DNA from: Bacteroidaceae bacterium
GTDB lineage: Bacteria; Bacteroidota; Bacteroidia; Bacteroidales; Bacteroidaceae
Assembly: GCA_045616905.1 (NCBI GenBank)
Contig: JAZLHP010000060.1
Span: 23,166-87,165, forward strand
Length of the DNA: 64,000 bases
Direction of reading: 5' to 3'
Shown: positions 3,216-6,889 of the stretch, in pieces
Position numbering within the stretch: the first letter of the stretch is position 1
How the letters are laid out: the number at the start of each line of letters is the position of its first letter
The notes under the pieces: model-generated
What the model saw: only the letters and a program-made list of their open reading frames with translations
The model's database searches: none
What the model was told of the DNA's origin: nothing
Translations under genes and position numbers: made by a program

Positions 3216-5030
3216 ATGCAAGCAATAATTCTTGCCGCAGGCATGGGCAAACGCCTGGGCGAATATACAAAGAACAACACAAAATGCATGGTGCAGGTCA
3301 ATGGCACAAGGCTCATCGACAGAATGCTGACACAACTATCAAAACTGTCGTTGAAGCGTGTGGTCATCGTCGTTGGATACGAAGGACAAGCTCTTGTTGA
3401 CTATCTCGGAAATGAATACAACGGACTTCGTATAGAATATGTGGTCAATCCCATCTACGACAGGACGAACAACATCTATTCACTTGCATTGGCAAAAGAG
3501 CAGATGCAGGAGGATGACACCATATTGCTTGAAAGTGACCTGATCTTTGAAGATGGCATGCTTGACGTGCTTATCGGAAACCCATTTCCAAACATTGCAC
3601 TTGTTGCTAAATACGAAACCTGGATGGACGGCACCATGGTGCGTATCGATGATGCCAACGACATAGTCAACTTCGTTCCTAAAGCAGCTTTTAAGTATGA
3701 CGAGACAGAACAGTACTATAAGACGGTAAACATCTACAAGTTCTCACGCGACTTTGCGAAAAGCAAATACGTGCCGTTTCTTGAGGCATACACAAAAGCA
3801 GTGGGTAACAACGAGTATTACGAAAACGTGCTGCGCATAATATCTTTTCTTAATAGTCATGACCTCAAAGCACTACCTGTAAACAACATGAAGTGGTATG
3901 AGATTGATGACAAGCAAGATCTGGATATTGCCGAAGCACTTTTTGCAGAAGAGAAAGACATATTGCGCAAATACTACGGACGCTATGGCGGATTCTGGCG
4001 ATTCCCACAAATGCTTGACTACTGTTATCTCGTCAATCCATACTTCTGCCAAACACGAATAATCGACGAGATGGAAGCAAACTTCCGCACCCTCATCTCT
4101 GAATACCCATCAGGAATGAAGGTGAACACGCTCCTTGCAAGCAAGTGCTGGGGAATAAAGGAGGAATACATCATACCAGGAAATGGTGCTGCTGAGCTTA
4201 TTAAGGCACTCATGGAACTGTTGCCGGGAACACTCGGCATCACTCGCCCTACATTCGAAGAATACCCTAACAGACGCGATAAGGAAGGATTGGTGACATT
4301 CGTTCCACAAGACAACGAATACAGGTACTCTGCAGATGACCTCATCAACCACTTCGGCAAAAACCATGCAGACAATCTCCTTCTTATAAACCCCGACAAC
4401 CCTTCGGGCAACTTCATACCAAAGGCAGACATACTTCGTCTGGCAGAATGGTGTGAAGACAACAAAACACGGCTTATCGTTGACGAGAGTTTCGTTGACT
4501 TCAGCGAAGATTGGGAGAGCAACACCCTTCTTGACAACAGCATATTGGAGAAATACCCACATCTTGTCGTCATGAAATCCATATCAAAAAGCTATGGAGT
4601 GCCAGGCATTCGCTTAGGCATACTATGCTCTGCTGATACAGAGATAATAGCAAGAATGAAGAAAATGGTAAGCATCTGGAACATCAACTCATTTGCAGAA
4701 TTCTTCATGCAGATATTCTCAAAGTATGAGAAAGACTACCAGAGAGCTTGTTACCGTTTCATTGAAGAGAGAAATGACTTTGAAGCAAAACTGCGTAAAG
4801 TGCCATTCCTAAGAGTGATGCCAAGCCAAGCAAATTATTTCCTCGTGGAAGTGCTTCCACCTTATACAGCAAACCGATTAGTGCTCACTATGCTGAAGCA
4901 ACACAACATCCTTCTGCGCGACTGTTCCGACAAAGCAGGATTTGACGGCAAGCAGTATATGAGAATAGCAGTACGCAGTCATGAGGACAACACAAGACTC
5001 ATAGAGGCATTTCAGCAAATAGGAAAATGA
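3216..5030 (+). CDS. Fusion protein: N-terminal nucleotidyltransferase (LicC/Gtp2-like) + C-terminal class I/II aminotransferase-fold domain (Gtp3/CobD/HisC-like)
   Basis: MQAIILAAGMGKRLG (G-x-G-x-R-L NTP-transferase signature) at the N-terminus. C-terminal half has ...LLINPDNPSGNF...IVDESFVDF...SISKSYGVPGIRLG (PLP-lysine type motif). Confidence 0.8.
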   Translation: MQAIILAAGMGKRLGEYTKNNTKCMVQVNGTRLIDRMLTQLSKLSLKRVVIVVGYEGQALVDYLGNEYNGLRIEYVVNPIYDRTNNIYSLALAKEQMQEDDTILLESDLIFEDGMLDVLIGNPFPNIALVAKYETWMDGTMVRIDDANDIVNFVPKAAFKYDETEQYYKTVNIYKFSRDFAKSKYVPFLEAYTKAVGNNEYYENVLRIISFLNSHDLKALPVNNMKWYEIDDKQDLDIAEALFAEEKDILRKYYGRYGGFWRFPQMLDYCYLVNPYFCQTRIIDEMEANFRTLISEYPSGMKVNTLLASKCWGIKEEYIIPGNGAAELIKALMELLPGTLGITRPTFEEYPNRRDKEGLVTFVPQDNEYRYSADDLINHFGKNHADNLLLINPDNPSGNFIPKADILRLAEWCEDNKTRLIVDESFVDFSEDWESNTLLDNSILEKYPHLVVMKSISKSYGVPGIRLGILCSADTEIIARMKKMVSIWNINSFAEFFMQIFSKYEKDYQRACYRFIEERNDFEAKLRKVPFLRVMPSQANYFLVEVLPPYTANRLVLTMLKQHNILLRDCSDKAGFDGKQYMRIAVRSHEDNTRLIEAFQQIGK

Positions 5031-6889
5031 ACTCGAATAAAAGCCTCAACTCCCTCAACCTTCACCCTTCAACCCTCAACCCTCAACTCACAACAACACC
5101 AATGACAATAACCATCTGCGGAGGAGGATCGCTCGGACATGTGTGCATAGGCGTGCTTTCAAGCCATAAAGACGTCAAGGTCAATCTGCTGACCAATCAT
5201 CCAGACAAATGGAATGACACCATCACCGTTACAGACATAAACGGAAAGATATTCAATGGCAAGATAGCGAAGCATTCCGAATCAGCACAAGATGTCATTC
5301 CTGAATCCGACATAGTGCTTCTATGCCTGCCTGGATACCTCATCAAGCAGACGCTTGAAAGGATAAAGCCATACCTGAATGCAAAAGCCATCGTAGGCAC
5401 AATTGTCAGCAGCACCGGCTTTTTCTTCTTTGCTCACGAAGTGCTTGGTGCCAATGCCCGTCTGTTCGGATTCCAACGCGTACCATACATAGCGAGAGTA
5501 GGCGAATATGGGAAAAGCGGAAACCTGTTAGGATACAAAAACAGCATATCCATTGCCGTTGAAAACATTGACGACAAAGAAACATTCCGCCAATCAATAG
5601 AGCATTTATTCTCAACTCCAACCTCCTTGCTTGGCAGTTTCTACGAAGCAGCACTCACAAACAGCAACCCAATCCTTCACACCGGACGTCTATACTCCCT
5701 ATGGCATAATTGGGACGGCACTCCATACAAACAATGTATATTGTTCTACAAAGAATGGACGGTTGATGCAGCACAAATGCTCATTGACATGGATAAAGAA
5801 TTCATGAGCATCCTTGACACCCTGCCGATGCAGAAGGGTGCCATACCTACATTGCTTGACTACTACGAGAGCCATGACGCACAAAGCCTATGCAGCAAAC
5901 TGCAAAGCATCACCGCATTCCAGAACATAACGGCACCGATGAAAGAAACGGAGCAAGGATGGGTTCCCGACTTTGAAAGCAGATATTTCACAGAAGACTT
6001 CCCTTTCGGATTACAATTCATCGTGAACTTAGCACGTGAAAAAGGCATCAGCACTCCAGTCATAGACAAGGTGTATAAATGGGGTATGAACGAGCAGCTT
6101 CGCCAACGCTTCAATCCCGAGGGATCCACATTGCGACAGCAGCAAATGCTGATGCTCGACATGCTGCTATGGTTTGACAAACTCTGCAAGAAGCATGACA
6201 TTAAATACTGGCTCAGCAGCGGCACACTGCTTGGTGCCGTCAGACACGGTGGGTACATACCATGGGATGACGATGTAGATATTGATATGATGAGAGAAGA
6301 CTATCTCAAATTGAAATCCGTGATGGCAAGCAACAATGATGATGACTACGAACTGCAAGATGGCGACACAGACAGCGGCTACTTCTTCAGCTACGGCAAG
6401 TTGCGTCATAAACACAGTTACCTTGCAGAGACAAACCGCTACGACAGGATATTTGAAATGCGAGGAATCTACATTGACCTCCTGACATTTGAGAAGATGC
6501 CTCGTTGCTTCAACAAATTAGCATGTCTAAGCGTAGGACACTCATACAAAATACTTAACACACCTGGTATTTCCGATGAGAAAGCCGCAAAGAAGGTGAA
6601 GCGCATAAAAGGATTCAACCATAATTTCCTTTTCCCTACATTGCGATTCATTTCCAAGATGATACCAACGAAATGGGTGCATCGTTCACCAGGCATTCCA
6701 TACAAGTCACGCACAACGTACAATGAGATATTCCCTACTAAGGAGATAAGCTTCGAAGGGCACCTGCTTCCAGCACCCAACGACACACACTCATACCTGT
6801 CACGTATGTTCGGCGACTACATGAAGCTACCCGACCTCGAAAACATTCATCCTCACTCGTTGGATATACAACTGAAAGAATACAATTAG
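5027..6889 (+). CDS. Fusion protein: octopine/nopaline-dehydrogenase-like NAD(P) domain + C-terminal LicD-family phosphotransferase
   Basis: Rossmann motif [11 protein letters not shown]. The C-terminal part [28 protein letters not shown] is the LicD signature with a DxD. ATGA overlap with the upstream gene at 5027-5030. The first 25 codons are a CTCAAC-type low-complexity tract, so ATG 5102 (MTITICGGG) is an alternative and perhaps better start. Confidence 0.75.
   Translation: [620 protein letters not shown]
5043..5100 (+). repeat. Degenerate tandem tract of about 7-8-nt period, (C)CTCAAC units
   Basis: GCCTCAACTCCCTCAACCTTCACCCTTCAACCCTCAACCCTCAACTCACAACAACACC read directly. Confidence 0.8.

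Follow-up and report, generated by a model that had tools for sequence, protein, structure and literature searches.

Introduction

The O antigen of Proteus mirabilis O14ab carries N-[(R)-1-carboxyethyl]ethanolamine phosphate (R-Cet-EtnP) on O6 of galactose, and glycerol is absent from it (PMC5560731). Among the 60 structures tabulated in the same work, R-Cet-EtnP is found solely in O14ab (PMC5560731 S4). The searched text of that paper holds no gene assignment for the substituent, and in the open-access literature we found no paper that assigns genes to R-Cet-EtnP, links the O14ab genes to the structure, or gives an opine-dehydrogenase route to glycan substituents. Here we analyze a 64,000-nucleotide stretch of a Bacteroidaceae bacterium (contig JAZLHP010000060.1, assembly GCA_045616905.1, 72% complete), hereafter the window, in which two adjacent fusion genes, gene 1 and gene 2, combine a nucleotidyltransferase (NTP), a pyridoxal 5'-phosphate (PLP) enzyme, an octopine dehydrogenase (ODH) domain, and LicD. 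We consider it likely that this locus makes cytidine diphosphate (CDP)-N-(1-carboxyethyl)ethanolamine and moves its phospho head group (Cet-EtnP, or AlaEtn-P) to a surface glycan.

Two other described systems resemble parts of this pair. FrbH, from FR-900098 biosynthesis, joins a cytidylyltransferase to a PLP decarboxylase. The pneumococcal CDP-2-glycerol pathway comprises Gtp1-3 and WchX, and a preliminary description of the window had assigned our genes to it. In published nomenclature gtp1 is a glycerol-2-phosphate dehydrogenase and gtp3 a phosphotransferase; Gtp1 is of the iron-alcohol-dehydrogenase type and Gtp3 of the HAD type.

Results

A library search with the ODH domain of gene 2 led to a P. 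mirabilis protein whose gene opens the O-antigen cluster downstream of cpxA. After cpxA, the order is ODH, the NTP-PLP fusion, an open reading frame (ORF) of 129 amino acids (aa), wzx, and licD. In three of the P. mirabilis loci retrieved, the published O14ab primers (forward and reverse) and probe all match wzy with 0 mismatches. The O14ab-type module shares with the window the NTP-PLP fusion, ODH, LicD, and flippase, found together and with full-length homology; identity to the window proteins is 50% over 602 aa for gene 1 (full length), 33% for ODH, and 33% for LicD, and the active-site motifs of the two ODH enzymes are common to both. On the gene 1 tree, the Proteus copy is placed within the Bacteroidales copies (99/97). 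The product of the 129-aa ORF is similar to the free serine kinase SerK (E 4e-10) and would supply phosphoserine. Serine, phosphate, and pyruvate account for every atom of the O14ab substituent. The link is a gene-to-structure correlation for a single serotype that was assigned in silico.

A second P. mirabilis O-antigen cluster (L092, 10001-18000) shares its ODH, fusion, and SerK-like genes with the first but differs in wzx, LicD, and wzy. None of the four serotype probes that we tried matches it, and we predict that it carries Cet-EtnP on another backbone. The 129-aa protein itself (L095, 12796-13185) is a minimal SerK-like protein of the ParB fold; a Fusobacterium locus, L014, holds a DUF1015 gene at the same position, and the two proteins share a weak profile match. 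The O14 probe was absent from the JGI metagenomes searched. A further P. mirabilis ODH match, in the plasmid collection, was set aside as it belongs to a siderophore-like operon, judged from its ORFs, outside the O-antigen cluster.

Gene 1 (3216-5030, + strand) encodes 604 aa, with Pfam matches to NTP_transf_3/NTP_transferase at aa 3-116 and Aminotran_1_2 at aa 315-599. Gene 2 (5027-6889, + strand) encodes 620 aa, with an ApbA-like Rossmann domain at aa 28-125, Octopine_DH at aa 203-353, and LicD at aa 387-596. Four domain families in two fused ORFs are what the preliminary description had reported, and both the Pfam matches and the presence of the motifs it quoted bear this out. The predicted structures have a mean predicted local distance difference test (pLDDT) score of 91.8 for the gene 1 protein and 89.3 for the gene 2 protein.

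The two ends of the module are those of a CDP-activated transfer system. The N-terminal half of gene 1 (3216-3950, + strand; PF12804/PF00483) is a LicC/PntC-type cytidylyltransferase, predicted to use cytidine triphosphate (CTP), and its best solved relatives are LicC (1JYK) and PntC (6PD1). The hallmarks of that family, an N-terminal Gly-rich motif with Arg and Lys and an acidic amine-binding residue, are present, and Arg13, Lys23, and Glu106 are invariant in an alignment of 41 homologs. Glu106 aligns with Glu104 of PntC, which contacts a primary amine, whereas the choline-specific LicC has Asp at that site. At the other end, the C-terminal part of gene 2 (6086-6889, + strand) is a LicD phosphotransferase with its own Met, joined in frame, that scores over the PF04991 cut-off (E 4e-36) and has the Asp-rich metal motif.

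Between them lies the ODH domain (5102-6085, + strand; PF02317), a reductase of the octopine/opine dehydrogenase family. Its best match in the PDB, by sequence (E 2e-29) and by fold, is scallop octopine dehydrogenase. It has the Rossmann and PF02317 domains of an opine dehydrogenase and the catalytic His/Arg/Asp set: His193, Arg294, and Asp299 (numbering from 5102) align with scallop His212, Arg324, and Asp329, and all three are invariant in homologs. The catalytic roles of the scallop residues we take to be established. From the family and the O14ab structure, the 2-oxo acid would be pyruvate and the product the (R) isomer. It is possible, though unlikely, that the same logic serves another head group, with CDP-ethanolamine N-alkylated by glyoxylate, 2-oxoglutarate, or 2-oxobutyrate, or with the reductase acting after LicD has placed ethanolamine phosphate on the glycan. 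Opine dehydrogenases differ in their 2-oxo acid and the Proteus enzyme is only 33% identical, while ODH-LicD fusions, also with an extra domain of ~320 aa, permit either order; yet the best structural matches of the domain use pyruvate, and its active-site motifs are those of the Proteus enzyme.

The C-terminal half of gene 1 (3963-5030, + strand) is a CobD/SMUL_1544-type PLP enzyme and a predicted O-phosphoserine (or CDP-serine) decarboxylase. Its first match in the structure database is 6OUX (E 9e-43), followed by 3FTB and CobD (1LC5). SMUL_1544 and CobD are its nearest relatives by both sequence and predicted fold, with verified HisC behind them. For the SMUL_1544 family, the annotation is serine-O-phosphate decarboxylase; TIGR01140 matches best, with a score below cut-off. 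The fold, the PLP lysine, the aspartate, and the phosphate-binding arginine of CobD/SMUL_1544 are all present. Asp423, Lys458, Arg466, and Arg583 are retained in 40-41 of the 41 gene 1 homologs, which fits a functioning PLP enzyme acting on a phosphorylated substrate, and Phe426 is conserved as well. This aminotransferase-fold half therefore appears to use PLP, the very circumstance that the preliminary description had named as speaking against its CDP-2-glycerol assignment. Position 426 is Phe in gene 1, SMUL_1544, and Salmonella CobD and Tyr in HisC, but exceptions exist. By its nearest relatives the C-terminal half is probably a phosphoserine decarboxylase, the residues by themselves fitting either a decarboxylase or a transaminase.

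A transaminase would convert dihydroxyacetone phosphate (DHAP) to serinol phosphate, as Cj1437 does, which would then be activated, N-alkylated, and transferred. The HisC/CobD fold covers both activities, and one capsule locus has both, with Cj1436 decarboxylating phosphoserine and Cj1437 transaminating DHAP (PMC11800397). Given that the PLP half is nearest to SMUL_1544 and CobD, that the Proteus cluster has a SerK-like gene, and that the O14ab product is an ethanolamine, we regard this as improbable and favor decarboxylation of phosphoserine.

Homologs of gene 1 form at least 8000 clusters, and most homologs are labeled as Bacteroidales (Prevotellaceae, Bacteroidaceae). Gene 1 is present in 35 of 300 related genomes. 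Of these 35 carriers, 24 have ODH in the position after gene 1, seven have an unrelated OCD/mu-crystallin protein there, and four have neither; no carrier has both. The gene 1 tree implies at least three exchanges between the two families. Enzymes of both families reduce the imine that forms between an amine and a 2-oxo acid, and so the swap points to N-carboxyalkylation. PF02317 occurs in 24/35 genomes with gene 1 and 13/265 without it, a comparison among related genomes that are not independent. A LicD or TagF-like transferase lies within ~7 kb of gene 1 in 27 of the carriers, and in a Fibrobacter metagenome-assembled genome (MAG) a TagF-like protein substitutes for LicD. Distant gene 1 copies pair with LicD and other possible N-tailoring enzymes, an S-adenosylmethionine (SAM) methyltransferase or a formyltransferase. 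Word-based locus scans gave one match apiece.

Several of these loci have features of their own. On a Gloeothece plasmid (L090, 6977-10439), a gene 1 homolog lies with LicD and a SAM methyltransferase; together they may give phosphocholine or methyl-ethanolamine decoration independently of choline. Beside a TupA-like ATP-grasp gene in the Fibrobacter MAG (L004, 12787-14750) is a second, divergent ODH. The pair is a candidate for making uronic acid amides of carboxyethyl amino acids, of which the Cet-lysine in Proteus O13 and O60 is an example. In L048 (3577-8683), gene 1 and ODH are separated by genes for an amino-acid permease and another nucleotidyltransferase, which may form a salvage branch. 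A cluster on a Bacillus cereus plasmid (L089, 3443-12741) resembles a fosmidomycin-type antibiotic cluster: beside a distant gene 1 homolog it has an ATP-grasp gene, an acyl carrier protein, and a copy of DXR.

The carriers also bear on a phosphonate version of the pathway, in which an aminoalkylphosphonate would be activated as its cytidine monophosphate (CMP) conjugate and transferred. The architecture resembles FrbH and PntC, and the closest relative has a phosphoenolpyruvate (PEP) mutase ~8 kb from the module, as another genome does at a distance of 13 kb; however, PEP mutase over cut-off is absent in 27 of the 35 carriers, many of them 97-100% complete, and none was found either in the window genome (72% complete) or in the genes called for the Proteus clusters. 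We rejected this version, to which we give very little credence, on the distribution of PEP mutase.

The CDP-2-glycerol assignment is the least credible of all, and we rejected it as well: a nucleotidyltransferase, a reductase, and a phosphotransferase do stand together in a glycan locus, but glycerol-2-phosphate synthesis has no use for an intact PLP site or an opine-type active site, the published gtp names do not fit the domains, and the antigen of the orthologous O14ab cluster is free of glycerol. The hallmark set of a glycerol dehydrogenase and a glycerol phosphotransferase with no amine chemistry is not found in the cluster, and Fe-ADH_2 matches in the window genome fall on other contigs, away from the locus. 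The general idea behind the assignment, synthesis of a phospho head group activated with CDP and its transfer by LicD to a glycan, is supported, and an amino-alcohol phosphate had been allowed as an option.

The genes around the module form a small glycan locus. Upstream are an acyltransferase of family 3 (973-2043, + strand; PF01757) and a Core-2/I-branching (GT14-like) glycosyltransferase (2211-3143, + strand; PF02485), the latter also adjoining the module in the related loci L011, L045, and L060. Downstream of gene 2 are a Wzx-type flippase (6927-8402, + strand; PF13440/PF01943) and a GT2-like glycosyltransferase (8399-9340, + strand; PF00535). The window opens (1-522) with the end of an alanine racemase gene, just upstream of the locus and probably there by coincidence. 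Elsewhere in the window, an ORF at 20929-22263 reads like a myo-inositol-1-phosphate synthase, beside a low-GC stretch (~34% at 19-21 kb).

The two genes were initially described as translationally coupled through an ATGA overlap. The overlap is present at 5027-5030, but it opens into a 25-codon, low-complexity leader (5027-5101, + strand), and homologs share a later gene 2 start, the ATG at 5102. The leader, 75 bases long, is missing in the closest relative but is also seen in an independently assembled contig. It contains a TCAAC-type short repeat, found at 12 sites across the genome and here read in frame. The overlap thus reads into a repeat-derived leader ahead of the conserved start.

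While the NTP-PLP fusion of gene 1 is the normal state of its family, the ODH-LicD fusion of the window lineage, with its junction at 6080-6090, is known from one assembly. One G fewer in the run of G at 6081-6084 would give two ATGA-coupled genes instead, and in the closest relative ODH and LicD are separate and adjacent (74% and 77% identical to the window, respectively). Such fusions occur in more than 70 homolog clusters. A single origin was rejected, because the ODH tree forces at least seven changes of fusion state, the junctions differ, and the window ODH sits among 27 unfused copies; the join in the window is probably recent. In the predicted structure, the fusion swaps the last few ODH residues for the first helix of LicD. 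Substrate channeling by the fusion is plausible, but having arisen repeatedly, the fusion itself is a minor point. Proteins of ~920 aa in L011 (8001-10769) combine ODH, LicD, and a third, glycosyltransferase-like domain with no Pfam match.

Discussion

From the domains, catalytic residues, gene linkage, and orthology to the O14ab-type cluster, we infer the activities, substrates, order of steps, and acceptor as follows. O-phospho-L-serine would come from housekeeping serC, or in Proteus from the SerK-like kinase; serC is found in the window genome, and a DUF1015 gene lies nearby on another contig. Gene 1 would convert phosphoserine to CDP-ethanolamine, its PLP half decarboxylating and its N-terminal half activating with CTP, in either order. 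FrbH cytidylylates the amino acid first, so activation may precede decarboxylation (PMC6697681). The ODH domain would then join pyruvate to the amine and reduce the imine with NAD(P)H to the (R) isomer, and LicD would pass the phospho group to a sugar hydroxyl with release of CMP. That hydroxyl probably belongs to a lipid-linked unit, which the adjacent flippase would export. The choline kinase family has no match in the 72% complete window genome.

Some observations weigh against this pathway. For the window organism it is predicted from the genes. The O14ab assignment was made in silico from wzy primers, and a second Proteus cluster has the same three genes without a known structure. With the Proteus ODH just 33% identical to that of the window, the 2-oxo acid could differ. 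Phe426 is a mere hint of a decarboxylase, since 3FKD, annotated as CobD, has Tyr and 3FTB, annotated as HisC, has Phe. As for a glycan acceptor, no polymerase or initiating transferase is visible at the window locus.

R-Cet-EtnP is a known O-antigen substituent and the pathway logic is also known; the genes described here are a candidate route to it. On balance, we favor the view that the window genes are the unassigned Cet-EtnP pathway, with a CDP-ethanolamine synthase that needs no kinase and an opine dehydrogenase whose amine substrate is nucleotide-activated. Such a pathway would occur in about one-ninth of the Bacteroidales sampled, with two unrelated reductase families swapping and possibly setting the (R)/(S) stereochemistry of a surface epitope. 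The O14ab match offers a culturable organism with a solved glycan, which makes the pathway directly testable. The prediction is that many gut Bacteroidales (35 of the 300 sampled) and a Fibrobacter MAG bear a zwitterionic, opine-type surface phosphodiester, which would bear on immune and phage recognition. If true, opine dehydrogenases extend to cell-envelope synthesis.

Compared with known systems, the two ends of the locus would work as in Lic and Pnt and gene 1 as in FrbH, and the Gtp features tested were not found in it. P. mirabilis O14ab has the same four domains and flippase, and R-Cet-EtnP is chemically established for the serotype (PMC5560731). There, ODH lies upstream of gene 1, separate from LicD, and a SerK-like gene is added, whereas in the window ODH and LicD are fused and wzy is absent. 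The Lic phosphocholine system (LicA-D) and Pnt (PntC, and the PntC-AEPT fusion Tde1415) likewise transfer a CDP-activated phospho-amine to a glycan through LicD. The window locus differs in having no kinase or transporter, a head group predicted to come from phosphoserine, and a predicted extra N-carboxyalkylation; its fused PLP domain is of class I/II, against class V in the Pnt-type fusion. FrbH shares with gene 1 a PF12804-type cytidylyltransferase that acts on an amino acid (PMC6697681). As described, however, it has a phosphonate substrate and an antibiotic product, needs PEP mutase, and is followed by neither a LicD nor an opine step.

SMUL_1544, CobD, and Campylobacter jejuni Cj1436 carry out the PLP-dependent decarboxylation of phosphoserine or phosphothreonine that is predicted for gene 1, but they are stand-alone enzymes, and what they make ends up in a cobamide linker or in an amide of a uronic acid and not in a CDP donor. 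The octopine dehydrogenase of Pecten and the opine dehydrogenase of Arthrobacter share the fold and the His/Arg/Asp catalytic residues of the window ODH. They act on free amino acids, whereas the amine of the window enzyme is predicted to be phospho- or CDP-ethanolamine destined for glycan decoration. In outline, pneumococcal Gtp1-3/WchX likewise pairs a CDP-alcohol donor with a phosphotransferase, through different enzyme families and with no known PLP or opine chemistry.

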